A DNA stretch of 64,000 nt from an uncultured Ignavibacteria bacterium (GCA_964496505.1 CAZBZV010000001.1:117209-181208), one strand, 5' to 3'. Positions 7,165-45,936 are shown, counted from the stretch's first letter. Made by a program: numbers and translations. Notes: generated from the letters alone by a model not told the origin.

Positions 7165-7186
7165 ATAGTGGGCATTTACATTGGTA

Positions 7187-7571: not shown

Positions 7572-7584
7572 TGACAGGGTGGCA

Positions 7585-8994: not shown

Positions 8995-9510
8995 ATGTTA
9001 AACAGGAATGTTCTTATCTTAAATCAGAATTATGAACCGTTGACTGTGTGTTCAGTCAAGAGGGCTGTTGTTATGATGTTATTGGGCAAAGTAGAAATGA
9101 TCGAGACAATGGACGGACATTTGCTGCATTCAGTCAGCGCGGCTATACGAGTTCCCTCGGTGGTGAGGCTGGGCTTTTATGTCAAGGTCCCGCGCAAGCG
9201 TATATTTCTTTCGCGCAAAAATATTATCAAGCGCGACGGGCATAAATGCATGTATTGCGGACGTACCGACGGTGCCATGACGGTGGATCATGTTGTGCCC
9301 AAGCGTATGGGCGGCAAGGATACCTGGGAGAACCTGGTTTGCGCCTGCACTAAATGCAATAACCGCAAGGGTGACCGTACCCCCGAGCAGGCCAATATGA
9401 CATTGATAAAAAAGCCTAAAAAACCCAATCATCTCATGTTCATACAACGGTTTATCGGAATATCCGACGACAACTGGAAGCCCTATTTGTTTATGGAGGA
9501 TTTTCATTAG
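8995..9510 (+). CDS. HNH endonuclease-family protein
   Basis: 'HKCMYCG...DHVVPKRMGGKDTWENLVCACTKCNNRKG' HNH/zinc-finger signature; start taken at ATG 8995 (track start 8989 is TTG). Confidence 0.85.
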   Translation: MLNRNVLILNQNYEPLTVCSVKRAVVMMLLGKVEMIETMDGHLLHSVSAAIRVPSVVRLGFYVKVPRKRIFLSRKNIIKRDGHKCMYCGRTDGAMTVDHVVPKRMGGKDTWENLVCACTKCNNRKGDRTPEQANMTLIKKPKKPNHLMFIQRFIGISDDNWKPYLFMEDFH

Positions 9511-20430: not shown

Positions 20431-20439
20431 GGGACAATC

Positions 20440-21105: not shown

Positions 21106-21113
21106 GGAGCCGA

Positions 21114-21464
21114 ATGATGGATGAGCTGAATTTGCTGAATCAGATAAAAGCCGGTAAGGTTGCCTCACAGACGAGTCAGCCGGAAAAGCAGAGAAACGCC
21201 GAGAAGGCCAATGGTCTGGAATTTTCAAAGCATCTTATGGAAAGGATAAACAGGCGCAAACTGCAGGTAGGGCCCGAGGAAACCCGCAAGCTCTCGGAAG
21301 CGATGAATAAGGCCGAGGCCAAGGGTTCCAAAGACTCGCTTGTACTTTTAAACGATCTGGCCTTCATAGTATCCGTGCACAACCGCACGGTGGTTACAGC
21401 AATGGATAAAAGCAAGATGAATGAGGGCGTTTTCACCAATATTGACAGCGCAATCATAATGTAA
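21114..21464 (+). CDS. small 'flagellar operon protein' (flgD-flgE intergenic family, TIGR02530-like)
   Basis: 116 aa, position between flgD and flgE as in Firmicutes/spirochetes; weak sequence evidence only. Confidence 0.45.
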   Translation: MMDELNLLNQIKAGKVASQTSQPEKQRNAEKANGLEFSKHLMERINRRKLQVGPEETRKLSEAMNKAEAKGSKDSLVLLNDLAFIVSVHNRTVVTAMDKSKMNEGVFTNIDSAIIM

Positions 21465-21528
21465 AGGGTAAGTAATATCAGGGCTGGCCCTCCTTTGAGG
21501 AAGCCTTGTTGTAGGAGGATTTTAAAGA

Positions 21529-24273: not shown

Positions 24274-25254
24274 ATGGCTAAGATATTATCACAGGATGAA
24301 ATTGATGCGCTATTGACAAGCGTGGCCCCGGGAGAAGAAGAGGGCGATGTTGAAATCGAAGAAGAAGAGATAGCGCGGTCTATAGTTGCCTACGATTTCA
24401 AGCATCCCAACCGTGTCTCCAAGGACCAGATTCGAACTCTCGAGAACATACACGACAGCTTTGCAGGGCATCTGGGCTCATCGCTCTCGACAATTCAGCG
24501 GGCGATGGTTGATGTGGAATTGGTCTCGGTAGACCAGATTACCTACAGCGAATTTATCATGTCGCTACTCAATCCGAGTTGCACCTACACGATTTCCATG
24601 GATCCGCTCGAGGGCGCGTGTATAATCGATTTCAGTCCGCCGGTTTGTTTTCTGTTTATCGACAGGATGTTCGGCGGAATGGGCAAGCCGGCTGAGACCG
24701 ATCGTGAATTGACCGGCATCGAGAAATCCGTTATGAATCGAATCGCCACCAAAGTATTCACGGAGTTAGAAGTCGCCTGGGAGCAGATTATAAGCATGAA
24801 CATGAAGCAGGTCGGGTTCGAAACCAATCCGCAGTTCCTGCAGATCGTTCCGCCCGGGGAGACGGTAATCGTGATTTCCTTCAACCTGAAAATGCTGGGA
24901 TCGTCGGGATTGGTTACTATCTGTTATCCCTATGTCACGCTCGAGCCGATTGTGGAAAAACTCTCGGCACAGCATTGGATCGATGCTGGTAAACAGCGCT
25001 CGGTCGAGGACGATTATCAGACCAATTCCGATGCTCTGAAGGATGTGGAGGCGGACCTGACGGCGGTTATGGGACGTACGACCCTCAGAATGGGAGATTT
25101 TTTGAGATTGAGAGTCGGGGATGTGATTCCAATGGATCAGAGCATTCATGATGACATACTGATTAAAGTTGGAAATAAGTATAAATATCTGGGAAAGCCG
25201 GGTATCATAAATAAGCTGATGGCTGTACAGATAACATCGGACTATAAAGTATAG
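24274..25254 (+). CDS. fliM: flagellar motor switch protein FliM
   Basis: N-terminal CheY-P binding 'LSQDEIDALL'; 326 aa. Confidence 0.9.
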   Translation: MAKILSQDEIDALLTSVAPGEEEGDVEIEEEEIARSIVAYDFKHPNRVSKDQIRTLENIHDSFAGHLGSSLSTIQRAMVDVELVSVDQITYSEFIMSLLNPSCTYTISMDPLEGACIIDFSPPVCFLFIDRMFGGMGKPAETDRELTGIEKSVMNRIATKVFTELEVAWEQIISMNMKQVGFETNPQFLQIVPPGETVIVISFNLKMLGSSGLVTICYPYVTLEPIVEKLSAQHWIDAGKQRSVEDDYQTNSDALKDVEADLTAVMGRTTLRMGDFLRLRVGDVIPMDQSIHDDILIKVGNKYKYLGKPGIINKLMAVQITSDYKV

Positions 25255-31589: not shown

Positions 31590-32703
31590 AAACTTTCAGG
31601 CAGACTCGATGCATGAGGCCATGAAACGGGTCAAGCAGGAATTCGGCACCGATGCCGTTATCCTCAATTCACAGGTAATCGAGGAGAAAGGCGTGCCCGG
31701 TTCGAAGCCCAAAAAGCGTTTCGAGATCACTGCCGGCAAGGACGTTCCCACGGGAAGCCGCATGACCGGCACTCAGGCGCCCTCGGCAAGATCTGAATCG
31801 CCAAGGCTGTCGGTCGAGGAGAAGAGGCTTATCGGGGATGTGGGTTTGGTGATACGGCGCTTCGAGAAGGAGCTGAATTATCTGGTACACACCCAGAAGG
31901 AAATCCGCGCCCTTTTGAAGACTCCGGCGGAGGCAAAATCACTCTGCGCCCATCTCGAGATGCATGACTTCGAAAAAGACCTGATTGCCCAAATCTTCAA
32001 CGATATTTCAGGCAAATCCGAAAACTCCGACGATCTGGAACAGATCCGGGCCGCACTTTTGCGCAACTGCGTGAATCCCCAGCCGATCAAGATGTTTGCC
32101 TCTGGGCTTAACAAGGCGGTCTTCGTGGGTCCTCCGGGATCGGGCAAGAGCGCGCTTCTGTCGAAGATTGCAACCAACTTCGTCTTCAAGCGCGGTATCA
32201 AGACCACGCTGGTGAATATGGACGACTATCAGCCCTTTGCCGGCAAGAGCCTTTCCGCCTATGCGGACATCCTCAAAATACCCTGCCATGAAGGCACCGA
32301 ATGGAGCGAGCCTCGTATCCTCGACGACTTCCATGTGATACTGGCCGATACCAAAGGCATACCGATTGGCGCCAAAGATGATCTCGAGCAACTGCAGGTT
32401 CAGCTCGAAAAATTCAACCCGGATGAGATTCATCTGGTGCTTCCGGCCTACTGTCTCTGGCGCGAAGCCTCCCGCTGGCTGGAATTCTTTGCGCCGCTGG
32501 GTCTGACTCAGATAGCGGTAACATTCCTGGATCAGACCGAATCCTATGGACTGCCGTTCAACCTGGCCGGGCATAAATCGCATAAGCTCTCCTATTTCAG
32601 CTGGGGCCGGAACAAGGCTTCTCTGGTTGAAGAGGCCGATCTGTTTTCACTTTCAAACAGGATTTTTGAAAATGTGGAGGATTTCGATGTTCAGTTCGCT
32701 TAA
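31579..32703 (+). CDS. flhF: flagellar SRP-like GTPase FlhF
   Basis: FlhF N-terminus 'MHEAMKRVKQEFGTDAVIL'; G-domain 'VFVGPPGSGKSALLSKIA...DTKG'. Confidence 0.8.
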   Translation: MLIKNFQADSMHEAMKRVKQEFGTDAVILNSQVIEEKGVPGSKPKKRFEITAGKDVPTGSRMTGTQAPSARSESPRLSVEEKRLIGDVGLVIRRFEKELNYLVHTQKEIRALLKTPAEAKSLCAHLEMHDFEKDLIAQIFNDISGKSENSDDLEQIRAALLRNCVNPQPIKMFASGLNKAVFVGPPGSGKSALLSKIATNFVFKRGIKTTLVNMDDYQPFAGKSLSAYADILKIPCHEGTEWSEPRILDDFHVILADTKGIPIGAKDDLEQLQVQLEKFNPDEIHLVLPAYCLWREASRWLEFFAPLGLTQIAVTFLDQTESYGLPFNLAGHKSHKLSYFSWGRNKASLVEEADLFSLSNRIFENVEDFDVQFA

Positions 32704-33628
32704 TGCAAGATTCAACATTCCTCCCATTATCTCAGTCGCATCCGGCAAGGGAGGAGTAGGCAAATCACTTCTCTCGGTATCGCTCTCCGCCCTGCTGTCG
32801 GAAAAAGGATTCAGGGTACTTCTGATCGACGCCGCTCTGGGACTGGGCAATCTGCATATAATGACAAACAGCATCCCGGTCGGGACTCTTGAAGATATCT
32901 TCGAGAATAACTGCGAGGTCAGGGACGCTGTTTTGAATATCAGTGAAAACCTTGACCTGATACCGTCAGCATCCGGAATCAGAACAAACAACCGCAATAT
33001 CGACGAGAACAGGCTGCGGGTCAAACTTGCCGGGCTTAAGAGTGAATACGATTTGATAATCCTCGACACACCCAGCGGAATTTCGGACAGGAGCCTCAGA
33101 TTTATCGCGCTCGCCGATGCCCTGATCCTGATAGTTACTCCCGAGCTGGGCTCGCTTGCGGACGGTTACGCTGTGCTGAAGCTGATCAATTCCGAGCAGC
33201 AAAACAGAGAATGCATGCTGATGGTAAATATGTCCCGGTCCGCGAGTGAGGGCAAATCCACTGCCGAGAAATTCGCGGAAATGACTAAACGGTTTCTGAG
33301 TTTAAAATTGAAACATATCGGCTGGCTGCCGGAGGACTCGAAGATAAAAAAGGTCCTCATGCGCCAGAATATATTGAACAGTCAGAGGGAGGATTGTCCT
33401 TTCTTTGAACATTTGCACGAAGCAGTGCAATATATTTTCCCCGATCTCGTAAAACATGAGGTTAAGGGCAAAGACAAAAGCAGGGGTAAGATAAATTCTG
33501 ATTTTATGTTAAGTTCTCCGTCGCCACTGACCGATAGAAGTAATGGTATTCCACGTGCGGGGGAACTTGAGAACAACATCGTAAACACAAATGTCAAAGC
33601 TCAAGGGAAGACTCTTTATGAAAGCTAA
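32687..33628 (+). CDS. flhG: MinD/ParA-family flagellar number regulator FlhG (YlxH/FleN)
   Basis: Deviant Walker A 'SGKGGVGKS'; start placed at ATG 32687 with GGAGG RBS, overlapping flhF end. Confidence 0.85.
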   Translation: MFSSLNARFNIPPIISVASGKGGVGKSLLSVSLSALLSEKGFRVLLIDAALGLGNLHIMTNSIPVGTLEDIFENNCEVRDAVLNISENLDLIPSASGIRTNNRNIDENRLRVKLAGLKSEYDLIILDTPSGISDRSLRFIALADALILIVTPELGSLADGYAVLKLINSEQQNRECMLMVNMSRSASEGKSTAEKFAEMTKRFLSLKLKHIGWLPEDSKIKKVLMRQNILNSQREDCPFFEHLHEAVQYIFPDLVKHEVKGKDKSRGKINSDFMLSSPSPLTDRSNGIPRAGELENNIVNTNVKAQGKTLYES

Positions 33629-34382
33629 GGATGCGATCTGGGAGGCATACCGAAAGGAATGCGCGCCCGAAATCAGGGAAGAGCTGCTGTCGCAGTATTT
33701 GCCGCTGGTGAGAAATGTCGCCAGCCGCATGGCGATTGGGTTTCCAAAATCGGTTGAGGTTGGTGACCTGGTCAATACCGGAGTCATCGGTTTGATTGAG
33801 GCATTCAGGAACTTCGATCCCGAAAGGGGCGTCAAGTTCGAAACCTATGCTGTTCCCAGAATCCGGGGAGCTATCCTCGATGAGTTGAGGTCGCTGGATT
33901 GGGTTCCGCGGTCAACACGTGCCAGAGCCAGGGAGATAGAAAGAGCCCTCGTCAGATTAGAGGGAAAATTAGGCAGAGCTCCCAGTGATCTGGAACTGGC
34001 CGGAGAACTCAATTATGAACTCAACGATCTGTATAAGGCTTTGGACGATTCCAACTGCACCGTGCTTTTGTCCCTGGACGAAATGATCTATCGCGAGGAT
34101 GACAATCGTCAGGTGCCCAGAGTTGAAACGGTCAAGGCCGAATCGAAAGAGTCGGTGCTCAATGATCTCGAAAAGCAGGAGATGCGTGCGTATCTGACAA
34201 TCGCAATTTCGAATCTAACCGAGCAGGAGAAGCTTGTTATTGCTCTTTATTATTACGAAGAATTAACCTTGAAGGAAATCGGCGAAGTTATGTCGATCTC
34301 CGAGTCGCGAGTCTCACAAATTCACACCAAGGCGGTATTGAAACTCAGAGGAATGGTGAGAGAAAAATTCGCGCTCACTTAA
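33591..34382 (+). CDS. fliA: flagellar sigma factor sigma-28 (FliA/SigD)
   Basis: Region 2 'LIEAFRNFDPERGVKFETYAVPRIRGAILDELR' and region 4 'LTLKEIGEVMSISESRVSQIHTKAVLKLR'. Confidence 0.9.
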   Translation: MSKLKGRLFMKAKDAIWEAYRKECAPEIREELLSQYLPLVRNVASRMAIGFPKSVEVGDLVNTGVIGLIEAFRNFDPERGVKFETYAVPRIRGAILDELRSLDWVPRSTRARAREIERALVRLEGKLGRAPSDLELAGELNYELNDLYKALDDSNCTVLLSLDEMIYREDDNRQVPRVETVKAESKESVLNDLEKQEMRAYLTIAISNLTEQEKLVIALYYYEELTLKEIGEVMSISESRVSQIHTKAVLKLRGMVREKFALT

Positions 34383-34395
34383 AACGCGGGAGTGA

Positions 34396-34686
34396 GTGAT
34401 GGTCCGTGCAATAGAACTGGCGGACTTGCTGGCAAAAACAACTGCGGCCGAGAAGGTGACGCAGATCGAAAAAGCCTCTCCGGATGTGGCACAGAGGCAG
34501 TTTGCCGCTGAGCTTGAGGAGAAGAAAGCCGAACGCCGGCAGAAGTCTGTGCCTACCTCGAAAACCGATGAGGCCATCATTCATCGCGATCAACATGGCA
34601 AGGATAAAGAGGGCCAGCAAAAGAAAAAAAAGAAGGAGCAGGATAAGAAGAAGAAAGAGTCTATGAGCATAGATATCAAGGCATAG
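34396..34686 (+). CDS. hypothetical small protein with poly-Lys/Glu C-terminal tail
   Basis: 96-aa ORF immediately after fliA; no family recognised. Confidence 0.4.
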   Translation: MMVRAIELADLLAKTTAAEKVTQIEKASPDVAQRQFAAELEEKKAERRQKSVPTSKTDEAIIHRDQHGKDKEGQQKKKKKEQDKKKKESMSIDIKA

Positions 34687-34762: not shown

Positions 34763-37501
34763 ATGGGAAAGGATTGGATGATGTCCAGGCAACTCGGTAA
34801 ACCGGGGCAGAGATACGGGACAAAGAGAAGAAATACAGCAGATGAATCCAAAAGGGGAGCTAAGAAAAGAGTTTATGGGAAGATAAGACAGTTAAATGAT
34901 TCAAGAGATCCATTAAGTCACAGTCCCTATCCGCCCAGAACCGGGAGAGAAAGTCTCCAAAACCACGAGGCCAAGAGCCGGAATTTGAATAGCGTCTCCG
35001 AATTAAAGAGACGCTTTGGAAAAAGAAATGACGTCTATGGCAGGAAGTCCGTCTATGCCCACAATGATATTTCCTGCTCCCCCGCCGCCCATGAAAATGC
35101 CGAGCACATCCTATCTGCGAAACTCGACAGGCCCTGGATCGAATCATCCTGCAACAGCGATCCGGATTCGGCACAGGTTGAACGGCAAATCAAACCCCTG
35201 AATCCCAATTCAAATGCCAAAGACATTCCCGCAGCATTATCGGATCCTGAGGCCAAACAGTCCCCGAGCCGTAAGAAAAGCAAAACCAGAACCGGAAGCA
35301 AAGCTAAAAACAGCACCACGAAAAATCAATCGGAAATAGAGTTTGTCGGCGAGACCAGAAATGAAACAGAGGATATTCCCCGTAATGACATTTTCGATAA
35401 TGAAGTTCAGGATCATCTCGATACACTTGAGACTCATATCGATGCCGTATTCGATGATGGAGAAATTACAAAAGAACATACTCCCGAGGCCGAAACAACC
35501 GAAAAAGCAACGCCGCCCGCGCGAAAAATTACATTATTCAGGCCGCCGGAAATTTCCAGAAAAGACAGAGGGGATGATAAGGCAGACCAGGAACAAATCT
35601 CCTTCGATGATGATCTTCGGGAATTTATAAATACAATCCTTACTCCCGGCAGCACCAAGGAACAAGCAGTTTCAGATGAGCGGATATCGGCATCTAAAGC
35701 CGCTCCCTCGATAGAGAAAAAGTCCGAGATACCCGAAAAAGTCGAGACTGTAAGTGCTGAGACAGAAAGCAGTGATCCTGTACTCTCATCGGCTGAGGCA
35801 GTTTCAGTAAGCCCCTCAGGCATTGCCACTGAGACAGCATCTGAAAATGTCGAACCACAGGCATTGTCTGAGTCAGTGACAGCGGTGCTGGAAGAAGAAG
35901 TCCACAGCCCTCAGGATTCCGGTGAACGCCTGAGATTTGAAATAGCCGAGATAGAGGAGAGGCCGGATGAATCGGATGCTCCTGATGAGAACGATGCAAA
36001 TCGAATTAGACAATTCGATACAAGTGCGGAAGAGGCCAGGGAGATAATCCCCGAAAACGAGTCCGAGACGGAAGAAAACCAATCCATGGAATCGCCAGAC
36101 GATGAAAAAAAGATTGATAGGGAGGATGCGCAGGAAGCTGAAAAAGAACCGCCTAAGAAAGCCGGCAAATCGAAAATCGTGCTGCTGCGTTCCTCGGAAG
36201 AAATTCGTCCCCAGATTGCCAAACCGGATCTCTCGAAACGTCATCAGCGTCCTGATCGCCCCTGGAGCCTGGATGTCGATATCGCTCTTCGTGAGCTAAT
36301 GGGAGATATCCCCCGTAATACAAAGATATCGCTGGAGCAGATGGCCCTGGCATGGAAGCGCGGATACGAATCATATTTCTCAAGACCGTTAACCGACAGC
36401 AGGTTTCCATACCTCTGGGCGGATGTAAAACAGATAAAGTTCGGCAGCAATTTCAATAGAAATTATCTTAGTATAGTAGGCGTCAATCTGAGCGGTGAAC
36501 GCAAACTCCTGGCGCTTTCTGAGGCTGAGACAAATTCCCCGGAAATCTGGCATATGCTTCTGAGACGTCTTGAGCGCTGTGATCTCGGCAATCCCAGACT
36601 GTTCGTGGGCAGGGCAGATCTGCCTTTATGGGATGTGTTGCCGCAGGTCTTTCCACGGACTGAGATTCAGTTCTGCTGGAATGATTTCAAAGTGAATATG
36701 CTCGAACAGTTCCCTAAGGAGTTTTCAGATCAAGTCGAGTCGCGGCTTCTGAAAATACAGTTTGCCGAGAGCAGAGAATCCGCCGAAGACTGGATCGATT
36801 ATTTCAAGAACAGTTTCGGAAAGAAATATCCCCGAGCTGTTACCGACTTGCTGAAAAATAAAAACAACCTTCTAAGCTATCTTTCCTTCCCGCGCAGGCA
36901 CTGGCGCAATTTACGCACCGATGGTTTCATCGGCCCCTGGTATCCTTCCCGAGCACTTCTGGAAACGGTCTGCAAATACGAGCCGATGAAGGATGTTACT
37001 CTTTATCTGGTATTCAATTACCTTATCCGGTCCCAGCCCGACTGGCCCCGACTGAAAGGGCGGCGTGCGTTGAGGAATGCCCGGAAGGGCAGGAAATTCA
37101 TTAATGGCAAACAAGTAAGCCGCCGAAAGCTGAAAAAAATCAACTCCTCTGCCGATAAAGAAACTAAGGACAGCCATTTTGGCATTTTGAAAAAATGGTA
37201 CTCAAGAGCCTTGAAGCTGATTGCCGGTAAGCCAAAGAAATCCAAAAAGTTTCACTCTAAACCGGCGATCGACAAAAGAAAATCGGCTCAGAAAACGCCG
37301 GATACGGGAAGAGAGTTGCTGGAAAAAGGCCTGATGGAGAGATGGCGCAAAAAGACTGGAGCGGGAAATGGTAGGAAGGCAGCCCCGCAATCCGCTAAGT
37401 CGAAATCAAACAGGTTCACACCCGGTAAGGATGCCGATAAGAAACAGCTTTCAGGTATGGAGCGCGAGCTTCTTGAGGATTTGAGGTCTGAAAAAGTATG
37501 A
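34763..37501 (+). CDS. 912-aa protein: ~500-aa acidic/disordered N-region + C-terminal Mutator/IS256-family transposase core domain lacking the catalytic Glu
   Basis: Residues ~510-800 align motif-by-motif with IS256 Tnp. 'PYLWADVKQIKF' ~ YLxxDGIYxKVR. 'VGVNLSGERKLLAL...SPEIWHMLLRRLERCDLGNPRLFVGRADLPLW...VFPRTEIQFCWNDFKVNMLEQ' ~ IGID.DG.KEVLG...ES.EFW..FL.DLK.RGL..V.LVVSDG..GL..A...VFP.A..QRC.VHLVRN. 'KYPRAVTDLLKNKNNLLSYLSFPRRHWRNLRTDGFIG' ~ KYP.......NW..LL.FF.FP..IRR.IYTTNAIES. D1 and D2 are retained; E of TTNAIES is replaced by RTDGFIG. No terminal IRs seen. Confidence 0.7.
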   Translation: MGKDWMMSRQLGKPGQRYGTKRRNTADESKRGAKKRVYGKIRQLNDSRDPLSHSPYPPRTGRESLQNHEAKSRNLNSVSELKRRFGKRNDVYGRKSVYAHNDISCSPAAHENAEHILSAKLDRPWIESSCNSDPDSAQVERQIKPLNPNSNAKDIPAALSDPEAKQSPSRKKSKTRTGSKAKNSTTKNQSEIEFVGETRNETEDIPRNDIFDNEVQDHLDTLETHIDAVFDDGEITKEHTPEAETTEKATPPARKITLFRPPEISRKDRGDDKADQEQISFDDDLREFINTILTPGSTKEQAVSDERISASKAAPSIEKKSEIPEKVETVSAETESSDPVLSSAEAVSVSPSGIATETASENVEPQALSESVTAVLEEEVHSPQDSGERLRFEIAEIEERPDESDAPDENDANRIRQFDTSAEEAREIIPENESETEENQSMESPDDEKKIDREDAQEAEKEPPKKAGKSKIVLLRSSEEIRPQIAKPDLSKRHQRPDRPWSLDVDIALRELMGDIPRNTKISLEQMALAWKRGYESYFSRPLTDSRFPYLWADVKQIKFGSNFNRNYLSIVGVNLSGERKLLALSEAETNSPEIWHMLLRRLERCDLGNPRLFVGRADLPLWDVLPQVFPRTEIQFCWNDFKVNMLEQFPKEFSDQVESRLLKIQFAESRESAEDWIDYFKNSFGKKYPRAVTDLLKNKNNLLSYLSFPRRHWRNLRTDGFIGPWYPSRALLETVCKYEPMKDVTLYLVFNYLIRSQPDWPRLKGRRALRNARKGRKFINGKQVSRRKLKKINSSADKETKDSHFGILKKWYSRALKLIAGKPKKSKKFHSKPAIDKRKSAQKTPDTGRELLEKGLMERWRKKTGAGNGRKAAPQSAKSKSNRFTPGKDADKKQLSGMERELLEDLRSEKV

Positions 37502-37523: not shown

Positions 37524-38729
37524 ATGACAAAGCAGCAAGATTCACCGATTTTTATGTCCAAGGTAGAGTGTCCGGTATGCGGCACAAAATTTGAAGTCGA
37601 AACGATTAAAGTTGGTGCTTATAATGAGGAGGGCCGCGATACGGATTTCCGGCCTAAGAAAAGAAAATGGCTTAATCCAGATTTCCAGAAGTATAATCCG
37701 CTTCTTTTCTTTATGGCTGTTTGTCCAAACTGCTTTTTTACCAAGGAGTTCACCTCAAAATATAAGGACTGGAAAAGCGACACGGTTTTTAAGAATTATC
37801 GCCAGAAAAACCTCAAGGATAAGCATCTCAAGGAATTCAAGAATGATGACGGCGTAATTAAAACTCTGGCTCATAACATCGACGCCGACAAATACCCGTT
37901 CCAGACGGCGGTGCTTAAAATGCTGCTGGGTATATATGACGAGCAGTTTAACCTGCAATACTCTAACCTGGATATCGGCCGGTATTTTCTGCGAATCGCC
38001 TGGCTCTTCCGCGAAAATTCTCAAAGCGATAAAAGCGGCGAAGGACAGCTTGCCAGCCACGCCATGAAAATAGAAGATATTATTCTCAGGCTCTCGGGTT
38101 ACTATGAGCAAATCCGTGAGGATGAAAAAGCGCTGGCCGCTTCATCGGCCGAGTTCATCAAAGATCCCCTCTTTCCGGAAGGCGACAAGAAAAGAGAATT
38201 ATCGGAATGCTATAATGATGCTCTCTCCGATCTGGATGAGACAGTCGAGAAATATAAATCGGCAGTGGTCAAGCTGAAAGGCAGCATATCTTCCAGCAGC
38301 GAGATAGTGGGGGTTAACGCTGAATCGATGGCTCCTCTGGAGCAGCCCTTCAACGGTCACACCAGCTTTCGGGAATATCTCCGTGAATTGAAGAAGATAT
38401 GGCCCGAAGCGCCAACCTCCGAGCACGAGGCCATGAATTCAGCCGCAGAATACTATAGGGCCGCCTATGAAGAGGGCAAGGAAATCTCCGCCGGAAATCA
38501 GGCTATCCAGGCGGTCTATCTTATAGCGGAATTGTCTCGCCGTATCGGCAAAAACAGGGAAGCTCGAGGCTATTTCAACACATCGATAAAATTAGCGCAG
38601 GAATATATTCATGCCAATAAAGGGGACCGTTCGAGGACGGCGCTGGCGCGTAAGATCCTGGAACTCGCACTGGAACAGGGAAAACTGAATCTGAAAACAC
38701 TGGAACAGAGGAAGAATGTCTCCGCTTGA
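37524..38729 (+). CDS. zinc-ribbon protein (DUF2225-like N-terminus CPVCG...VCPNC) with helical C-terminal region
   Basis: 'VECPVCGTKFEVE...DFRPKKRKWLNPDFQKYNPLLFFMAVCPNCFFTKEF'; 401 aa. Confidence 0.55.
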   Translation: MTKQQDSPIFMSKVECPVCGTKFEVETIKVGAYNEEGRDTDFRPKKRKWLNPDFQKYNPLLFFMAVCPNCFFTKEFTSKYKDWKSDTVFKNYRQKNLKDKHLKEFKNDDGVIKTLAHNIDADKYPFQTAVLKMLLGIYDEQFNLQYSNLDIGRYFLRIAWLFRENSQSDKSGEGQLASHAMKIEDIILRLSGYYEQIREDEKALAASSAEFIKDPLFPEGDKKRELSECYNDALSDLDETVEKYKSAVVKLKGSISSSSEIVGVNAESMAPLEQPFNGHTSFREYLRELKKIWPEAPTSEHEAMNSAAEYYRAAYEEGKEISAGNQAIQAVYLIAELSRRIGKNREARGYFNTSIKLAQEYIHANKGDRSRTALARKILELALEQGKLNLKTLEQRKNVSA

Positions 38730-39474
38730 AAAAACATCCGCAAATAACGTGAAAATTCAGCTCTGGGAAAAGCTGGAGCTGGAATGCGGGAAAAACGAGA
38801 ATACCGGAATTTACTTTGCCAGAGTGCAGGACCTTTCCAACGGCGGTATTCTGATCGACCGCCCGATCTGGCTGAGCGGTGAGCCAACATTCAATCCGGA
38901 TGAGTATTTTCTGGTAACGGTCATGCGTGAAGACGGCGCTTACCGATTCAACGGCAGAATAATCAAATCCTTCAAGAAAGGCGATAAGCAATTCTATGTC
39001 ATAAAATACCCGGACAAATTGTACCGGTATCAGAGAAGGGGGTATGTCAGGGTGGAGCTGGATATGAATGTTCATTTCAAGCTTCTAAATGATGTTCTGG
39101 ATTCCAAAATATCTCTGGAGAAATCCAAAGAGTATGTATCTTGCAGTATAAATCTGTCGGCCTCGGGAATCCTGATTAATTCCCTCAAGGTGTTGAAAAA
39201 GGACGATATGGTTGCACTTTATCTGAAGGAAAAATCTCTGCAAATGGATTTTCCGGTTTTTGGCATTGTGCGCAGGATAGTGGATGCGGAGAACAACCGT
39301 ATTCATGCCGGCATTGAGTTTATAACAGCAGAAGAACTCGAGAAACAGCTCGATGCCGAACAGCTAAAGCGCCTCCCGGATTCAATTTTCAGCTTCACCG
39401 ATCGCAGAAGGCAGGCTCTGGTTCAATTCGTATTTAATTATCAGATTAAGCTCAGGCAGAAAGGCCTGATATAG
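38716..39474 (+). CDS. YcgR/MotI(DgrA)-like c-di-GMP-binding flagellar brake protein (PilZN + PilZ)
   Basis: PilZ motifs 'YQRRGYVRV' (RxxxR) and 'NLSASGILI' ((D/N)xSxGG variant). Confidence 0.75.
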   Translation: MSPLEKTSANNVKIQLWEKLELECGKNENTGIYFARVQDLSNGGILIDRPIWLSGEPTFNPDEYFLVTVMREDGAYRFNGRIIKSFKKGDKQFYVIKYPDKLYRYQRRGYVRVELDMNVHFKLLNDVLDSKISLEKSKEYVSCSINLSASGILINSLKVLKKDDMVALYLKEKSLQMDFPVFGIVRRIVDAENNRIHAGIEFITAEELEKQLDAEQLKRLPDSIFSFTDRRRQALVQFVFNYQIKLRQKGLI

Positions 39475-39482
39475 GAGGTATT

Positions 39483-39995
39483 ATGGCCCCGCAAAATCCT
39501 GCTAAGGGAAAAACAGCCGGAAAAACAGGCAAAAAACCGACTGTTAAAAAACCATTTAAGGTCTTCCATCACAAGAGAAGAAAGTATGTCAGACTGGAAG
39601 TCAATAGCCCCATAAAATTCAAGACCTTCAATCCGATTGAGCCGGATTTGAAACTCGATGAGAATGAGACCTGCGAGGGAACGATTCTCAATATCTCCGG
39701 CGGAGGCGTTCTCTTTGAGACCGATTACACCGTGCGCGAAAACGACTACCTCGTATTGGAAATGACCCTGGCCGATGCGGACACCATAACGGGAATCATC
39801 GGCAAGGTCAAGCGTGTCGATACCGATGAGGGCACGCCTTTGGTGGGAATCGAATTCATGTCTCCGGAAAAACTCAAAGCCGAGCTGCCCTCGCATGTGC
39901 TGGATAAAATCGGTGAAGAGATTTACAGCTTCGACGAGCAGTTGAGAAAAATGCTCTTGAAGTATGTCTTCACGCAGAAAGTGGAAAAGGTATAG
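39483..39995 (+). CDS. PilZ-domain protein with basic N-terminal tail
   Basis: 'HHKRRKYVRLEV' (RxxxR) and 'NISGGGVLF' (DxSxGG). Confidence 0.7.
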   Translation: MAPQNPAKGKTAGKTGKKPTVKKPFKVFHHKRRKYVRLEVNSPIKFKTFNPIEPDLKLDENETCEGTILNISGGGVLFETDYTVRENDYLVLEMTLADADTITGIIGKVKRVDTDEGTPLVGIEFMSPEKLKAELPSHVLDKIGEEIYSFDEQLRKMLLKYVFTQKVEKV

Positions 39996-39996
39996 C

Positions 39997-40614
39997 ATGA
40001 AAAGTCCGGCCATTGTATTCTTATTGCTTATCTTTTGCATTGTCGGATCAGTATCCGCCGCCGATCAGATCATGGTCCTGCACGTTATCCAATCCGATGT
40101 CGAGTATATAGATCTCGATCTCAAGAACAGGCTCGGATTTGTCCTCTCCGGTGTCAACGGCCTCGAGCTGGTCTGGGCCGAGGAGATAGAGAGCTGGAAG
40201 GCGGGAAGCGATTTCAGACCCGGGGAGCTACACTCTCATAGATTCCAGCGGGAACTTGTCAATGATTTTGACGCCGATTATCTGATCTGGGTGAAAGTCT
40301 TAAGGGCTCAGTCGAATATCAGCTCATCAACGGTGCTCCCTTTCGTCTTCAAATCTCATAAACGCAAATTCTACCTGGAAACCGAGCTGAGGATAATCGA
40401 TGCCAGAAGCGGCAGGATTGTAAGTCAGGAAAGATTCGAGGAGAGCAGTAATGGTTCGCGAAGTCTGGCTTATCTGGATCTGGATGCCAGCAACGAGCCC
40501 GCCCTGCACTCGCCGTATACGCAGCAGATTATGGCCTTCAGGGAGCTGGAAGAAAAGACCGCACGCAAGATAGCCAAAGCCGTAATAGAAACTGCAAAAC
40601 AGAACCGTCCCTGA
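39997..40614 (+). CDS. hypothetical exported protein
   Basis: Signal peptide MKSPAIVFLLLIFCIVGSVSA; start moved to ATG 39997. Confidence 0.5.
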   Translation: MKSPAIVFLLLIFCIVGSVSAADQIMVLHVIQSDVEYIDLDLKNRLGFVLSGVNGLELVWAEEIESWKAGSDFRPGELHSHRFQRELVNDFDADYLIWVKVLRAQSNISSSTVLPFVFKSHKRKFYLETELRIIDARSGRIVSQERFEESSNGSRSLAYLDLDASNEPALHSPYTQQIMAFRELEEKTARKIAKAVIETAKQNRP

Positions 40615-40708: not shown

Positions 40709-42457
40709 ATGTCGTCATCAGTAAAAGCCCTACATGCAAATATCCCTTCCGAGGGAATCTCTGTAAATTCAATAGAGAATCTGCCCTTTCCGTCATTTTT
40801 ATGCAATGAGAATCTGGATGTCATTTCGGTAAATCAGGCTATGACAAATCTTCTCGGAGTTAATGCCCATGGGGATATGCAAATAACCAGCCTGGGACAA
40901 ATCGAATCTCTTCTGGGTGCCCGTTTGCATCCTCAAAATTACCATAACAGCAGTAACAAAGGCGGTCTGGTAAGCTTCACGAATCTCCGGGGTGAGATGC
41001 GTTACTGTACCGTTTCCATGATGCCTCTGGATTTGAAGGACGGTTCGGTATTTATGTATATCCTTCAGGATGAGAGCAGAACATATCTTCTGGGGGAAAG
41101 GCTGGCACGCAAAGATTCCGAGCTGTCGATTTTCTCCCAGGTCGTTTCAGCCCTGGGTTCTCTTTTGAATTTTGATGAAATCCTGCAGATAATTCTGATT
41201 GCGATTACCGCCCGTGAAGGATTGGGCTTTAACCGCGCTTTTTTGTTTTTATACGATCAGGATAAAGCGCAACTGGAAGGTTATACCGGAATCGGACCGT
41301 CATCGCCCGAGGAGGCGGGGCGGATATGGAATTCCCTTCCGGATGAAGGCCGCAGCCTTATTGAGGTTCTGAAAACATATTCGGCAACTATTAACAATTC
41401 TGCGGAAAGTATTGCCGAAAAAGTCAAGAATATCAAAATCCCTCTGGATGCCGAATCTCACCTGCTAAATCAGGTTGTCCTGCACAAAGCTCCTCGAATC
41501 ATCAGTATTGATAATTGCGGCTGCAAGAGTGAATGCGAAGTCTGTATTGCAATGGAAGTGGATCAATTTGCTGCTGTTCCGATGGTGGCAGGGGAGAATG
41601 TACTGGGGGTAATAACCGCTGATAATTTAATAACCGGCCGCTCTATAAAAGAGCGCGATTTATCGCAATTGCAGGTCTTTGCGAATCAGGCCGCGATTGC
41701 CATAGAAAGAACCCGTCTCTACCAGAGCCTTTCAGATTACCTTAAGAAGCTTGAAAAAGCCAACATAAATCTGCGCAATGCCCAGGAAGAATTATTAAAA
41801 ATCGAAAGGGTAACTCTCTGGAGCGAACTCACCTCCGACATTGCTCACGAACTCAGGAATCCCGCCTCCATAATCGGCGGTTTTGCCGCCCTGATCTGTA
41901 AATCTCAGGATTTGCCCGATAATCTAAAAGAACAGGCCAAAATAATTTTTGATGAATGTTCGCGACTCGAGAGCGCGCTGAACACCGTTCTGGATTTCTC
42001 CAAATCGTTTGCTCAGGAAAAAACCGGATTCTGTCTCTTGGATGTTGTTCGGGAAACCTGCGAAATCGTTCTTACCAAAGAGGTTAATCGCCGAATCAGG
42101 ATCCAAGATCCGGAGGATAAATCCTGCTATGTGGTTGAGGGGCGTGTGGATCAGATAAAGTTTGCATATTATACTATAATGTCCATGATATCAGAACGGC
42201 TGTCGCCCTCATGTACCATTAACATCCGCTTTTATTCTGCCGATACTAATCATAAGGCGGTATTTGAGATAGAGTCACCGGATTCGCCAAAAACCGACTA
42301 TCTGGAGGAGATCGCAAATCCGAGTACTGGGAAAGTCGCACTCAGGATGAGTATGGCGGTCGAAGCCATAAAATATAACGGCGGAAATCTCGGAATTGAA
42401 TCGAGTGCCGAGGGGAGGACACGCATTTACGTGGAATGGCCTTATGCAAGGAGATGA
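40709..42457 (+). CDS. cytoplasmic sensor histidine kinase (sensory N-region, GAF domain, HisKA, HATPase_c)
   Basis: H-box 'ELTSDIAHELRNPASIIGG'; GAF-like 'REGLGFNRAFLFLYDQDKAQLEGYTGIGP'; C-terminal ATPase region ending 'GGNLGIESSAEGRTRIYVEW'. Confidence 0.85.
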   Translation: MSSSVKALHANIPSEGISVNSIENLPFPSFLCNENLDVISVNQAMTNLLGVNAHGDMQITSLGQIESLLGARLHPQNYHNSSNKGGLVSFTNLRGEMRYCTVSMMPLDLKDGSVFMYILQDESRTYLLGERLARKDSELSIFSQVVSALGSLLNFDEILQIILIAITAREGLGFNRAFLFLYDQDKAQLEGYTGIGPSSPEEAGRIWNSLPDEGRSLIEVLKTYSATINNSAESIAEKVKNIKIPLDAESHLLNQVVLHKAPRIISIDNCGCKSECEVCIAMEVDQFAAVPMVAGENVLGVITADNLITGRSIKERDLSQLQVFANQAAIAIERTRLYQSLSDYLKKLEKANINLRNAQEELLKIERVTLWSELTSDIAHELRNPASIIGGFAALICKSQDLPDNLKEQAKIIFDECSRLESALNTVLDFSKSFAQEKTGFCLLDVVRETCEIVLTKEVNRRIRIQDPEDKSCYVVEGRVDQIKFAYYTIMSMISERLSPSCTINIRFYSADTNHKAVFEIESPDSPKTDYLEEIANPSTGKVALRMSMAVEAIKYNGGNLGIESSAEGRTRIYVEWPYARR

Positions 42458-42458
42458 T

Positions 42459-42812
42459 ATGCCAAGGGTATTGATCGTCGATGATGAGGAGAACTTCAGA
42501 AAGCTCTACAGCATGGAGCTGAGTTCTGAAGGTTATGATGTTAGTCTGGCGGACTCCGGTCAGGCGGCTATCCGGAGTGTATCCGAAGAGGCCCCTGACA
42601 TAGTGGTCCTGGATGTTAAGATGTCCGGCAAGGACGGGCTGGAAACATTATCCGAACTGAAGAAAAAAAACAAGGCCCTGCCGGTAATCCTGAACACCGC
42701 CTACAACTCGTACAAGAACAACTTTCAGTCCTGGCTGGCCGAGGACTATGTTATCAAATCCGCCGATCTGAGTGAACTGAAAATGAAAATCAGGAATCTA
42801 TTGAAGATCTGA
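42459..42812 (+). CDS. single-domain response regulator (CheY-like receiver)
   Basis: 'RVLIVDDEENFRKL...DIVVLDVKMSGKDGLETL'; start at ATG 42459 just after kinase stop. Confidence 0.85.
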   Translation: MPRVLIVDDEENFRKLYSMELSSEGYDVSLADSGQAAIRSVSEEAPDIVVLDVKMSGKDGLETLSELKKKNKALPVILNTAYNSYKNNFQSWLAEDYVIKSADLSELKMKIRNLLKI

Positions 42813-43171
42813 TGGAAAGCAAAGTCAAACAGATTAAGCCCGAAAATCGGGAAGTGCCGGATAGTATCGTAAGCCTTCTGGAGGAAATCCGTCTAACTTC
42901 GCTGAATCTGGCGGTGGCATCAGCAAAATTCCAGGCCTACAACATTCGCCAGGACAAGATAAAAAAGGACCTGACCGAGGTTGTAGCCCTTGCTCTGGAG
43001 TCTGTGCAGTTTCTATCCAGATTCCTGGAGGAGATCGGCATGAAAACTGCGCAAAAATCATGGCTGACCGAGGAGGTCGACCATGAGAAAGTAAACGAAA
43101 ATCTCAGGAAGCTTTACGATTATCTTGAAAACATAACGGACAATTTCATGAAGGATAAAGGATTGCGCTAA
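42812..43171 (+). CDS. hypothetical helical protein (weak resemblance of 'EIRLTSLNLAVASAKF' to MCP signalling-tip motif)
   Basis: 119-aa ORF translationally coupled to receiver gene; family not recognised. Confidence 0.4.
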   Translation: MESKVKQIKPENREVPDSIVSLLEEIRLTSLNLAVASAKFQAYNIRQDKIKKDLTEVVALALESVQFLSRFLEEIGMKTAQKSWLTEEVDHEKVNENLRKLYDYLENITDNFMKDKGLR

Positions 43172-43265
43172 TAAGAGAGGCAATCATCTTTTGGGGTGTT
43201 TTAATTCGGGTTACCGATCCGTTTTTTGCTTTAAACGAATATGTCACTTAATCGATTTGTACATC

Positions 43266-43292
43266 TAAGCTTAAGTCGTGTTCTGCCGATAA
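43266..43292 (+). promoter_or_regulatory. sigma-28 (FliA/SigD) promoter TAAG-N15-GCCGATAA
   Basis: Exact 15-nt spacer and full -10 GCCGATAA consensus 30 nt upstream of the CheB-like gene start. Confidence 0.6.
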
Positions 43293-43321
43293 TATAAGTT
43301 TAGAAAGGTAAGAAAGGGAAT

Positions 43322-43936
43322 TTGCAATTGGATAACAAGATCATAATTCTGGCGGCATCATTGGGCGGGCCGCCTCTGGTGAATGATATCCTTTCCGGTC
43401 TGCATCCATCATTCGATTTGCCAGTTATGGTACTCCAGCAGATGGAGTCCGATTTCTCCGAGCCTTTAACCCAGGCCTGGAGCAAAACATCCGCACTTCG
43501 AGTGGTAAGATTGTCCGAGGAGGAGGAGATCAGATGCGGCAGCGCCTATGTAATTCCCTATGCTGTTTTTCCCGTATTCTCGAAACATGTTGATGGAATG
43601 AAAGCTCATTCCAGCACTCTGGAAGCGGGCCAGGATGTCAATAATCAATGGGCCAGAGCTATCAAGGAATCGGTTAATGAATACGAGGTTATTCTGGTGC
43701 TGCTGTCCTACATAGGTCTGGATGTATATCAGCTTCATGATTCCCTCGATCTTCTGCGCGAGGGGGAGGGAGTAATCATAAGATGTGTCCCTTCCGGTGA
43801 GAATGATGATGCGCATATTTTTGATGATTCGGATGATGCGGCGTGGCTAGACATGGATATCGATCAGATCGTGGAATATCTGAACAGAATTTCTAGGAGT
43901 AAGTACATATCGGCCAGAAGCGAATCTGGTCATTAG
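43322..43936 (+). CDS. CheB-methylesterase-like domain protein with His->Gln at the catalytic triad position and acidic C-terminal tail
   Basis: 'IIILAASLGGPPLVNDILSGLHPSFDLPVMVLQQMESDF...RVVRLSEEEEIRCGSAYVIPY' aligns to CheB 'IAIGASTGGTEAI...LLITQHMPPGF...[20 protein letters not shown]'. Ser of GASTGG is retained; QHM is QQM here. TTG start. Confidence 0.65.
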   Translation: MQLDNKIIILAASLGGPPLVNDILSGLHPSFDLPVMVLQQMESDFSEPLTQAWSKTSALRVVRLSEEEEIRCGSAYVIPYAVFPVFSKHVDGMKAHSSTLEAGQDVNNQWARAIKESVNEYEVILVLLSYIGLDVYQLHDSLDLLREGEGVIIRCVPSGENDDAHIFDDSDDAAWLDMDIDQIVEYLNRISRSKYISARSESGH

Positions 43937-43968
43937 AATATTTATATTGTTGGTATGGAGGCTGGAAG

Positions 43969-44373
43969 ATGGATGATGCTGTTATACTGGTAGTGGATGA
44001 TGAAGAGATGCTTCGCAAACTCCTCTTCAAAATCCTCGATAAGGAGGGATACAATGTACTCCTGGCGTCATCAGGCAGGGAAGCGCTGGATATACTATCC
44101 AGGGAACGAGTGGATCTGATAGTTACTGATGTTAAGATGCCCGAAATGGATGGCTTTGATCTTTTGAAAAAGGTCAAAGAGAAATATTCGCGCATCGGCG
44201 TTATAGTGATGACGGCATTTGGAGATGCCTATACTGTCAGAGACGCACTGCTTCTCGGCGCGGATGAATATATTACGAAACCGTTTAAGAGCTTCGAGAT
44301 TGTAATGGTCGTCGAGCGGGCGCATTGGAGAATACAATCCTCAAGTCCAAAAGAGGAGTCACCGAAGGCATAA
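43969..44373 (+). CDS. single-domain response regulator (CheY-like receiver)
   Basis: 'VILVVDDEEMLRKLL...LIVTDVKMPEMDGFDLLKKVK...EYITKPF'. Confidence 0.85.
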   Translation: MDDAVILVVDDEEMLRKLLFKILDKEGYNVLLASSGREALDILSRERVDLIVTDVKMPEMDGFDLLKKVKEKYSRIGVIVMTAFGDAYTVRDALLLGADEYITKPFKSFEIVMVVERAHWRIQSSSPKEESPKA

Positions 44374-44436
44374 TAAAAAAAAGGGGCATCCGCAGGATTT
44401 AGATCAGCGGGAAAAGGGCAGAAAGCGGGGAAACCC

Positions 44437-45936
44437 ATGGTACGTGTGACAGACGATATGAAGCTGGCCAAAGTAGATGAGGCATTTAAAATAACTGTGT
44501 CTCATGACAAGCTGCAGGCCTATCTTCGGATTGATTCGGAAAAATTTGAGAATAAGGAACTTACCCCGGAAGTAATTATGGCCAACCTGAAGGCCGCAGG
44601 GGTGGATTTCGGCTTTAAAGAAGATGAGATTCAAAGAATTGTCTCCGAGCTGGTTTTTAATGAGCGCGTTTTAATCGCCGAGGGCCTCCCGCCTCAGACC
44701 GGTAAATCCGCCGAGTTCGAATTCTGTTTTGATCCGGAAAGAAAAGTCGCACCCAAAGAGGGCAGCGACGGCCGTATCGACTACCGTGACATGGATTTTC
44801 TCCAAAACGCCGAACCCGGCCAGGTTCTGATAAAAAAGATTCCCCCGGTCGATGGCACTCCCGGAAAATCAGTAAAAAATGAGGAAATTCCTGCCAAGCC
44901 GGGCAAAGATAAGAAACTGCCCAAAGGCGCTAATACCGATATATCTCCGGACGGCCTCACACTTTCGGCCGAAAAGGCCGGTACAATCGTGTACGCCGGC
45001 GGCATAGTGAGTATCCAGCCGGTGACTGCCATTTCCGGCAGCGTCGATATTTCCACCGGAAATATAACCTGCAAGGGATCGCTGAAGGTGGGCAAGGATA
45101 TCAAGTCCGATTTCAAGGTCGTTGTGAATGGCAACCTTGAAGTCAACGGCAATGTTGAGGATGCCGAGATAGATTGCAAGGGCAATGTCATTGTCAAAGG
45201 CGGTTTCATCGGCAGGGGGGACGGTTGTATCAATGCCGAGGGTGATGTCACCCTGAAATATATTATCAATCAGACTATAAACTCCAGAGGCAATGTCACT
45301 ATTGGCGGCGAGGCGGTTAACGCCAAAATTCATGCCCGTGACAGGATCGAAATGATCGGTTCCAAAGCAAAGGTCGTGGGGGGATGTATGACTGCGCGAA
45401 GGCTAATCAAGGGCGTGACGCTTGGCGCTGATGCTGGAACCAACACGGTGCTAAAAGTCGCGTACGATACGAAGCTTATGGAGCATTATCGCCAGGTCCA
45501 GTCGGAGATTGAGAGGCTCAAGGAAGATGAAAAGCGGGTCAAGGCCGCGCTGGTCGATCTATACCGTTTGCATATGAACAAAAAGCTTCCGCCTCAGAAA
45601 CAGGCTGTTATGAAAAAGCTGGAGGAGTTCAAGAAGAGCCTTCCGGCCCAGTTCGAGGAACTCGACGTTCAGAAAAAAGAGCTGGACAAAAAGATGGCAG
45701 AGTTCAAGAATGCCAAGGTGATCGCCGAGAAGGATGTATATCCCGGAGTGCAGGTTCATATCGGCAAGCAGTACAAAGAATCCGACAGCGTGCGCGGACC
45801 GATGATCTTCGAATTATACAGCGACAGCATAGTGGCATCATCCTACGATAAACAATCGTACGAAGCCAAGGAGAAAGCGCGCAGGGACAAAGAGCAGAAG
45901 GCGCGCCAGGCTCTTGAAGCAGCAGAAAACAGATAA
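44437..45936 (+). CDS. FapA (flagellar assembly protein A, DUF342) family protein
   Basis: N-domain, central beta-helix repeats (GNVxVxGxV... x several) and C-terminal coiled coil, as in DUF342/FapA. Confidence 0.7.
   Translation: MVRVTDDMKLAKVDEAFKITVSHDKLQAYLRIDSEKFENKELTPEVIMANLKAAGVDFGFKEDEIQRIVSELVFNERVLIAEGLPPQTGKSAEFEFCFDPERKVAPKEGSDGRIDYRDMDFLQNAEPGQVLIKKIPPVDGTPGKSVKNEEIPAKPGKDKKLPKGANTDISPDGLTLSAEKAGTIVYAGGIVSIQPVTAISGSVDISTGNITCKGSLKVGKDIKSDFKVVVNGNLEVNGNVEDAEIDCKGNVIVKGGFIGRGDGCINAEGDVTLKYIINQTINSRGNVTIGGEAVNAKIHARDRIEMIGSKAKVVGGCMTARRLIKGVTLGADAGTNTVLKVAYDTKLMEHYRQVQSEIERLKEDEKRVKAALVDLYRLHMNKKLPPQKQAVMKKLEEFKKSLPAQFEELDVQKKELDKKMAEFKNAKVIAEKDVYPGVQVHIGKQYKESDSVRGPMIFELYSDSIVASSYDKQSYEAKEKARRDKEQKARQALEAAENR

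Follow-up and report, generated by a model that had tools for sequence, protein, structure and literature searches.

A CheB-like protein with an altered catalytic triad in a sigma28-linked signalling locus of Zixibacteria

CheB has been studied as an enzyme of chemoreceptor adaptation, and the question raised here is what a CheB-like protein does at a locus devoid of its usual partners. This locus lies in a 64-kb stretch of DNA (64,000 nucleotides, hereafter the window) from an uncultured bacterium deposited as Ignavibacteria (GCA_964496505.1 CAZBZV010000001.1:117209-181208). Six co-oriented genes, all on the + strand within positions 40709-45936, encode in this order a histidine kinase-like (HK-like) protein, a single-domain receiver (REC1), an orphan 119-residue protein, the CheB-like protein (‘pseudo-CheB’), a second receiver (REC2) and a FapA/DUF342 protein. 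The positions and strand proposed in a first-pass annotation of the window were confirmed by a check of the open reading frames (ORFs). No CheA, CheW, CheR or methyl-accepting chemotaxis protein (MCP) domain was found in the ~60 ORFs scanned within the window, where the absence of canonical chemotaxis core genes claimed in that annotation holds, nor any che core gene within 8-10 kb in related loci. The answer developed below, and favoured with moderate confidence, is that pseudo-CheB derives from CheB but serves as a non-catalytic adaptor, within a phospho-signalling module linked to sigma28; our confidence in any specific partner is much lower.

The gene of pseudo-CheB occupies positions 43328..43936 (+ strand) in an ORF open from 43322. 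Its probable start, judged from where the ribosome-binding site lies and from the N-termini of orthologues, is the TTG at 43328, and the product would thus count 202 residues instead of the 204 of the ORF; residue numbers used here (Ser13, Gln40 and Asp134) follow the 204-residue ORF. The kinship with CheB that had been proposed for this ORF is borne out by profile, sequence and structure comparisons. In Pfam, CheB_methylest (PF01339) matches residues 8-132 with E=3.4e-13 (50 bits versus a cut-off of 24), and phmmer against the PDB retrieves the Thermotoga CheB catalytic domain 3SFT (E=8e-8) and other CheBs, with a similarity that is weak past the first 80 residues. The AlphaFold2 (AF2) model computed from 24 family sequences (pLDDT 84, pTM 0.83) has significant Foldseek matches to CheB structures only, namely 3sft, 6ymz, 1chd and 1a2o (E 7e-11 to 1e-7, TM 0.67-0.73), the next match being at E=7e-3. 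The NCBIfam CheB models give 37.8 bits versus a cut-off of 293 and 32.6 versus 342, which places the protein far below the family threshold.

Inspection of the catalytic triad, a check suggested in the first-pass annotation together with structure prediction, shows a CheB fold with the Ser kept, a Gln in place of the His, and an Asp site that varies within the family. The nucleophile Ser13 (AASLGGPP) aligns with the GSSTGGP motif of CheBs in the PDB, corresponding to Ser164 of Salmonella CheB (GASTGG); it is invariant throughout the 24-sequence family (counted as 23/23) and kept too in the deep orthologues P0025-27. At the site of the catalytic His (VVQHM; His190, QHM), HMMER alignments to CheBs of the PDB place Gln40 (VLQQM). 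The distribution at this site is 19 Gln, 4 His and 1 Tyr among the 24 family sequences, and Val, Ala or Ile in the deep orthologues. D134 of the window protein (SYIGLD) stands opposite the catalytic Asp (Asp286, GMGxDG) in a MAFFT sequence alignment; the family has Asp in 13 sequences, Glu in 4 and other residues in 7, with K, Q, M, I and V also tolerated. The canonical HMPPGFT is replaced by an invariant MESDFSEPLTxAWxKT, giving the family motif Q(Q/H)MESDFSEPLTxAWxKT, and the active-site loops are the best-conserved part of the protein. The canonical C-terminal CheB region (VVFGMP motif) shapes the active-site cleft; in the AF2 model of the present protein, residues 161-172 form an acidic loop, modelled with low confidence, that takes the place of the C-terminal part of the domain.

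These features bear first on whether pseudo-CheB is still an enzyme, that is, a Ser-dependent hydrolase, esterase or deamidase relying on Ser/Asp and another base supplied by the invariant set E42, D44, E47 and K55, and acting on a protein substrate that could be, for instance, the 119-residue protein or receptors encoded elsewhere. Such an enzyme would account for the invariance of the nucleophile down to the deep orthologues, the strong conservation of the active-site loops and the aligned Asp of the window protein, and the full set of Ser, His and Asp occurs in a single family member, P0010. However, the tolerance of Q, H, Y, V, A and I at the His site and of K, Q, M, I and V at the Asp site, as well as the loss of the C-terminal CheB region to the acidic loop, are at odds with it; no CheR or MCP is encoded nearby in any locus, and a Glu-Glu pair in the 119-residue protein, a candidate substrate, is not kept as E/Q-E/Q in its family. 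On balance a hydrolytic role seems unlikely. The His-bearing sequences could have been ancestral active enzymes, but this is ruled out by a neighbour-joining tree rooted on the deep orthologues with V/A/I, in which the four of them are nested among Gln-bearing sequences, so that loss of the His is ancestral for the family.

A second question is whether the gene is simply decaying, as the lost His, the variable Asp and the weak similarity to CheB past residue 80 could suggest and as the first-pass annotation had envisaged under the name of a decaying paralogue. When the window is compared with locus L012 (91% identical), where dS is 0.31 and thus unsaturated, the ratio of non-synonymous to synonymous substitution rates (dN/dS) amounts to 0.126; three further comparisons give 0.12-0.15. 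Reading frames are intact in at least 27 sequences, family motifs are invariant, and lineages in which FlhA is only 67-69% identical still share the promoter and the gene order. Decay is excluded by this purifying selection (dN/dS ~0.13), and we give a functionless CheB paralogue virtually no credence. On these sequence comparisons, the gene qualifies as that of a maintained, pseudoenzyme-like protein.

The family is narrowly distributed. A profile search covering 1.84 billion representatives returned only five CheB-like clusters (50%-identity representatives) at E<=1e-30, with scores falling from 157 to 83 and then to ~65 bits, into ordinary CheBs. In the GTDB species set, the family occurs in five metagenome-assembled genomes, four named Zixibacteriota and one carrying the submitter's label Ignavibacteria, and seven further loci come from JGI metagenomes. 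The 119-residue protein has 22 homologue clusters; those with an organism name are from Zixibacteria, and several others lie on fetched Zixibacteria loci. Among the sequences found, both families are thus restricted to Zixibacteria. The complete order from the HK-like gene through REC1, the 119-residue protein, pseudo-CheB and REC2 to FapA is found in L003-L006, L008, L009, L011 and L016. More broadly, the fliA-to-FapA order is kept in all related loci of sufficient length for a judgement, and the module is always downstream of flhF-flhG-fliA in loci with preserved order. The order up to the HK-like gene recurs in the complete Zixibacteria genome LS998015.1 (L017), whose FlhA is ~61% identical, and the deep positional orthologues P0025-27, only 22-23% identical, have the same gene order. 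A candidate positional orthologue elsewhere, P0063, was rejected as an unrelated REC-less CheB beside HEAT and CheR genes, and other CheB-like matches of ~200 residues lie on contigs too short to judge gene order. No relevant paper emerged from literature searches on motility or chemotaxis in Zixibacteria, on DUF342 or on pseudoenzymes resembling CheB.

What connects pseudo-CheB to sigma28 is the DNA immediately upstream of it. The 150-nt spacer between the gene of the 119-residue protein and the CheB-like ORF contains a terminator-like hairpin with a T-run (43207..43231, + strand, detected by consensus scan only), which separates the HK-like, REC1 and 119-residue unit from the downstream unit, and then a sigma28 (FliA)-type promoter, TAAG-N15-GCCGATAA, at 43266..43292 (+ strand). 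Compared with the consensus TAAA/G-N15-GCCGATAA, this is the sole exact match in 64 kb, where ~1 match to the motif at <=1 mismatch is expected by chance. In all 13 of the fetched loci with a close family member, one copy of TAAGC-N14-GYCGATA stands just 5′ of the CheB-like gene in a spacer that has otherwise diverged between orthologous loci. Being unique in the window and conserved across loci within this diverged spacer, the predicted promoter, first noticed in the first-pass annotation, is well supported as the element driving the pseudo-CheB, REC2 and FapA genes. The signal fades in the deep orthologue loci: L008 has no motif, and the one in L011 departs from it at two positions. The presumed factor is FliA, whose gene (33591..34382, + strand; Pfam sigma70 regions r2, r3 and r4) lies ~9 kb upstream of the promoter and is the syntenic anchor of the module. 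A second candidate sigma28 promoter, before the DUF2225 gene at 37433, was ruled out because its -35 spacing is wrong.

The partners encoded beside pseudo-CheB were examined in the same manner. The HK-like protein (582 residues; 40709..42457, + strand) has a PAS-like/GAF-HisKA architecture according to Pfam (HisKA at E=1e-11, GAF, and a weak PAS match) and is without any transmembrane-like stretch. Its H-box is intact, with an invariant H380 in SDIAHELRNP, and its best PDB match is ThkA (3a0r_A, 3A0R_A; E=2e-25). In the alignment with ThkA, the Asn of the N-box is replaced by Met or Leu, the G1 box is absent and GxGLGL of the G2 box has become GKxALK. These losses are common to seven orthologues, deep ones included, and HATPase_c has no Pfam match in this protein or in any orthologue. 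Since the N, G1 and G2 boxes and the HATPase_c match are missing across orthologues, the HK-like protein is unlikely to bind ATP and is probably without autokinase activity. The GAF sensor kinase of the first-pass annotation is therefore retained for its GAF and HisKA domains and its H-box, but probably not as an autokinase. Within the GAF domain, a Cys cluster, CGCKSECEVC, was noticed at residues 270-279 (window 41516-41545); C270, C276 and C279 do not vary among five orthologues, and the cluster might serve in metal or Fe-S binding or in redox sensing. In L017, a second and shorter GAF-HisKA gene (291 residues; locus coordinates 19537-22076) precedes the HK-like gene.

REC1 (117 residues; 42459..42812, + strand; Pfam Response_reg E=2e-24) starts at an ATG, 42459, located 1 nt past the stop of the HK-like gene. 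It is of the TrrA type: among PDB entries, TrrA (3a0r_B) comes first with E=2e-28 and 102 bits, well ahead of the next match at 61 bits. REC2 (134 residues; 43969..44373, + strand; Pfam Response_reg E=1e-31) finds Spo0F as best PDB match with 92 bits, CheY proteins following at ~60-65 bits. Both receivers have the full phospho-acceptor set (DD, D, T and K in REC1) and are predicted to be phospho-competent. They had been called CheY-like, a description that is correct for the receiver fold and only at that level, because REC1 is nearest to TrrA and REC2 to Spo0F. REC2 is followed by the FapA/DUF342 protein (499 residues; 44437..45936, + strand), in which Pfam recognizes FapA_N (E=3e-47) and the FapA beta-solenoid domain (E=6e-57), so that the succession of a receiver and FapA after the CheB-like gene is as annotated.

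The 119-residue protein (42812..43171, + strand), whose start overlaps the stop of REC1, has no Pfam, NCBIfam or PDB-sequence match. AF2 predicts three helices (17-39, 45-74 and 91-115; pLDDT 75), and Foldseek of this model gives nothing below E=0.8, an MCP (3g67) appearing at E=4. Its invariant core comprises E24, R27, N32-L33-A34, S37 and K39 plus the LTEVVALALESVQ stretch. A faint echo of the MCP signalling tip had been read in this protein; it did not withstand scrutiny. MCPsignal (PF00015) has no match in 20 members of the family at E<=10, hhalign of the family against a Tsr tip fragment (an approximate query) gives a probability of 1.7%, and homology to the MCP tip finds no support in Pfam, PDB profile search, hhalign or Foldseek. 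By eye, the L008 orthologue resembles LLALNAAIEAAR, a likeness without backing from any method.

Pseudo-CheB could still be an accessory of a canonical chemotaxis system encoded elsewhere in the genome, as a dead CheB competing for docking on receptors or CheA, or tuning adaptation. The N-terminus of FliM, MAKILSQDEIDALL (window 24274-24320), includes LSQDEIDALL, a perfect CheY~P-binding peptide, and because FliM keeps this peptide the motor probably receives some input of the CheY type; the fold of pseudo-CheB is, moreover, that of CheB throughout. Against such an accessory stand the lack of any che gene in the window or in 8-10 kb of related loci, the constant linkage of pseudo-CheB to the HK-like, receiver and 119-residue protein genes, and its retention where fliM, fliN and the local flagellar block have been deleted (see below). 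We consider this role doubtful.

The deletion is seen in a reduced sublineage made of two species-level lineages, one comprising SpSt-1246 and a 208-kb JGI contig, the other ACK-K077 and JABAHP01; the assembled genomes of the sublineage are DSEQ01, JAABVY01 and JABAHP01. Their gene order is a MiaB-like gene, a 3′ remnant of flhG, fliA, a transposase-like gene, DUF2225, one PilZ gene, the HK-like gene, REC1, the 119-residue protein, pseudo-CheB and DUF512. The flhG remnant, ~96 codons directly 5′ of fliA (L002 2414-2690, frameshifted; L022 681-968; compare flhG of the window, 32546-33628), is the deletion scar left by the loss of fliK..flhG. Missing from the reduced locus are fliK through most of flhG, including fliM and fliN, the small ORF after fliA, the YcgR-like gene, the gene of a secreted protein, REC2 and FapA. 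The sigma28 motif and a core consisting of fliA, the HK-like gene, REC1, the 119-residue protein and pseudo-CheB are kept, with a dN/dS of 0.147 for pseudo-CheB between the two lineages. FliA of the sublineage is 96-98% identical to that of the window, compared with 66-88% for neighbouring genes, and no close FlhA match could be assigned to these lineages. This last result is suggestive of flagellar loss in the sublineage, but it is not proof. As the sublineage keeps the core and deletes REC2, FapA and the YcgR-like gene, the core is separable from this flagellum-linked periphery, and the sublineage amounts to a natural experiment on the function of the core without the adjacent flagellar genes.

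The same observations open another possibility, namely that the HK-like protein, REC1, the three-helix protein and pseudo-CheB together regulate sigma28 itself, independently of the flagellum. They could form a partner-switch or an anti-sigma device that depends on phosphorylation and is built from a dead kinase and a dead methylesterase, and the promoter before pseudo-CheB would close a feedback loop. This would explain why this set always travels with fliA, its survival under purifying selection in the reduced sublineage, and the high identity of FliA compared with its neighbours. At present we regard a dedicated sigma28 regulator as rather improbable.

We return to the non-catalytic adaptor, for which the following scheme can be proposed. 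Homology and fold, the lost catalytic and ATP-binding residues, the purifying selection and the conservation of gene order and promoter are what the data show; the binding partners of pseudo-CheB, the direction of phosphoryl flow and the output of the module are what we infer. A descendant of the CheB catalytic domain would have become a non-catalytic signalling part of a two-operon module inserted in the sigma28 sub-module of the flagellar superoperon of Zixibacteria. The first operon would contain the HK-like gene, the TrrA-like REC1 and the three-helix protein, and the second, under the FliA promoter, pseudo-CheB, the Spo0F-like REC2 and FapA. The cytoplasmic HK-like protein most likely works, like Spo0B, ChpT or DivL, as a histidine phosphotransferase or as a phosphatase gated by a signal, and not as an autokinase; it would shuttle phosphoryl groups to and from REC1 and REC2, or remove them, under the control of its PAS/GAF sensor. 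The remodelled active-site loops of pseudo-CheB would bind a receiver, the 119-residue protein, or both, in a phosphorylation-dependent way. A cytoplasmic signal sensed by the GAF domain would thereby be coupled to sigma28-stage functions, with an output at the sigma28 tier. In members with flagella this would be assembly linked to FapA, and FliA itself is perhaps a target as well.

Several points weigh against this scheme. The window protein has Ser and Asp in place, with Gln at the His site, and might, though we doubt it, have a hydrolytic activity of a non-canonical kind. The degeneracy of the catalytic and ATP-binding (CA) domain in the HK-like protein is deduced from motifs only. A HK-like protein unable to autophosphorylate would leave the relay without a named source of phosphoryl groups. 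Lastly, since FliM keeps the CheY~P-binding motif, a canonical chemotaxis pathway using pseudo-CheB may exist elsewhere in the genome.

The scheme shares with the first-pass annotation the idea of a non-canonical pathway; that annotation saw it as built from degenerate che-parts, whereas the CheB-like protein is the only part found to be derived from chemotaxis. It also saw the pathway as feeding into flagellar assembly or number, which fits the REC2-FapA pair; the core persists under purifying selection where fliK..flhG, REC2 and FapA are deleted. The individual domains are all known. The novelty resides in a clade-specific, maintained CheB pseudoenzyme unlinked to receptors and CheR, in its pairing with a HK-like protein lacking the ATP site, and in the persistence of this pair with fliA after deletion of flagellar genes; no prior report of these features was found in the searchable literature. 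If the proposal is correct, it would mean that the che toolkit has been reused as a non-enzymatic signalling part, and it suggests a compact phosphorelay or partner-switch acting on the late (sigma28) flagellar tier in a phylum without a cultured model.

The surroundings of the module deserve description. The flagellar block of the window comprises fliK, flgD, flgE, fliL, fliM, fliN, fliO, fliP, fliR, flhB, flhA, flhF, flhG and fliA. The genes located 3′ of fliA encode successively a 96-residue protein, an IS256/Mutator transposase-like protein, a DUF2225 protein, a YcgR-like PilZ protein, a second PilZ protein and a secreted protein of 216 residues, after which the module begins. The 96-residue ORF (window 34396-34686) is basic (pI 9.6), with a Lys-rich C-terminus and no Pfam match; unannotated ORFs of 93-103 residues occupy the same position in L003, L005, L006, L008, L017 and L018, and the reduced sublineage has no room for it after fliA. 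Its product could be a small protein specific to the flagellum, perhaps of the FlgM or YjfB kind.

The transposase-like gene (window 34763-37501) is fixed between fliA and DUF2225 in all close relatives (L002 3688-5418, L003 1191-4211, L005 1639-4167, L006 2332-4212 and L022 1795-3465). It is present in the reduced sublineage and absent from the deeper L008, L009 and L017. The product, of 556-1006 residues overall, has a long, acidic, low-complexity N-terminal extension of variable length, and matches transposases in Pfam (E=1e-20) and the IS256 model of NCBIfam (E=1e-30, below cut-off). It looks like a domesticated transposase and not a mobile element.

The DUF2225 gene, the YcgR-like gene (PilZNR and PilZ) and the second PilZ gene cover positions 37524-39995, between the transposase-like gene and the module. 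Both PilZ domains keep, by eye, the RxxxR and (D/N)xSxxG motifs that bind cyclic di-GMP, which suggests a possible cyclic di-GMP input alongside the phospho-signalling genes. The 216-residue protein (window 39964-40614) has a hydrophobic, signal-peptide-like N-terminal stretch (Kyte–Doolittle value of 2.5 at residue 15) and only a weak FlgT_M match (E=0.08); relatives with flagella have its gene in the same place, whereas the reduced sublineage has lost it. Far from the module, a stretch of lower G+C content (0.41 versus ~0.48) has on one side a gene for an AHJR-like restriction endonuclease/HepT-like protein and on the other a gene for an HNH endonuclease; the region spans window positions 4975-5664, 6001-8000 and 8989-9510 and might represent a small islet of mobile or defence genes with no relation to the module.

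Comparison with known systems helps to situate the module. With CheB itself (PF01339, EC 3.1.1.61), pseudo-CheB has in common the fold over ~200 residues with the same order of strands and helices, and the nucleophile elbow (A/G)-x-S-x-G-G-P with its Ser. The CheB catalytic domain (1A2O) packs its receiver over the active-site face and recognizes a helical hairpin; pseudo-CheB has no fused receiver, as is also the case of other REC-less CheBs such as P0063 beside CheR. It differs by the replacement of His by Gln, the unconserved Asp, MESDFSEPL in place of HMPPGFT, the acidic loop in place of the GMP region, and by its neighbourhood without CheR, MCP, CheA or CheW, in 64 kb for the window and 8-10 kb for relatives.

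The closest known counterparts of the upstream unit are ThkA and TrrA of Thermotoga maritima (3A0R), which are the best PDB matches of two adjacent gene products, the dimerization and histidine phosphotransfer (DHp)-CA part of the HK-like protein and REC1. Both systems have adjacent genes and a single-domain receiver without an output domain. However, ThkA has the N, G1 and G2 boxes that the Zixibacteria protein has lost, and the sensor region of the latter consists of a PAS-like domain and a GAF domain with a Cys cluster. Spo0B, ChpT and DivL provide the other point of comparison, ChpT being described as a HK-like phosphotransferase in PMC3433190. Here the common features are a DHp hairpin with a phosphorylatable His, a CA-like domain that does not (in the HK-like protein, probably does not) bind ATP, and the association with single-domain receivers. 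This resemblance is architectural only and does not imply membership at the sequence level; in addition, the HK-like protein differs by its PAS/GAF sensor domains and by having no known upstream kinase.

Finally, FapA has been placed in a sigma28 sub-module of flagellar superoperons with the order flhF-flhG-[flgV]-fliA-fapA (PMC11607428). Zixibacteria likewise have FapA downstream of flhF-flhG-fliA and oriented as they are, with no FlgV seen in the arrangement of the window. The difference lies in ~10 kb of regulatory genes between fliA and fapA, which encode the transposase-like protein, DUF2225, two PilZ proteins, the secreted protein, the HK-like protein, REC1, the 119-residue protein, pseudo-CheB and REC2. 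The Zixibacteria arrangement thus looks like the sigma28-FapA sub-module with regulatory genes intercalated.

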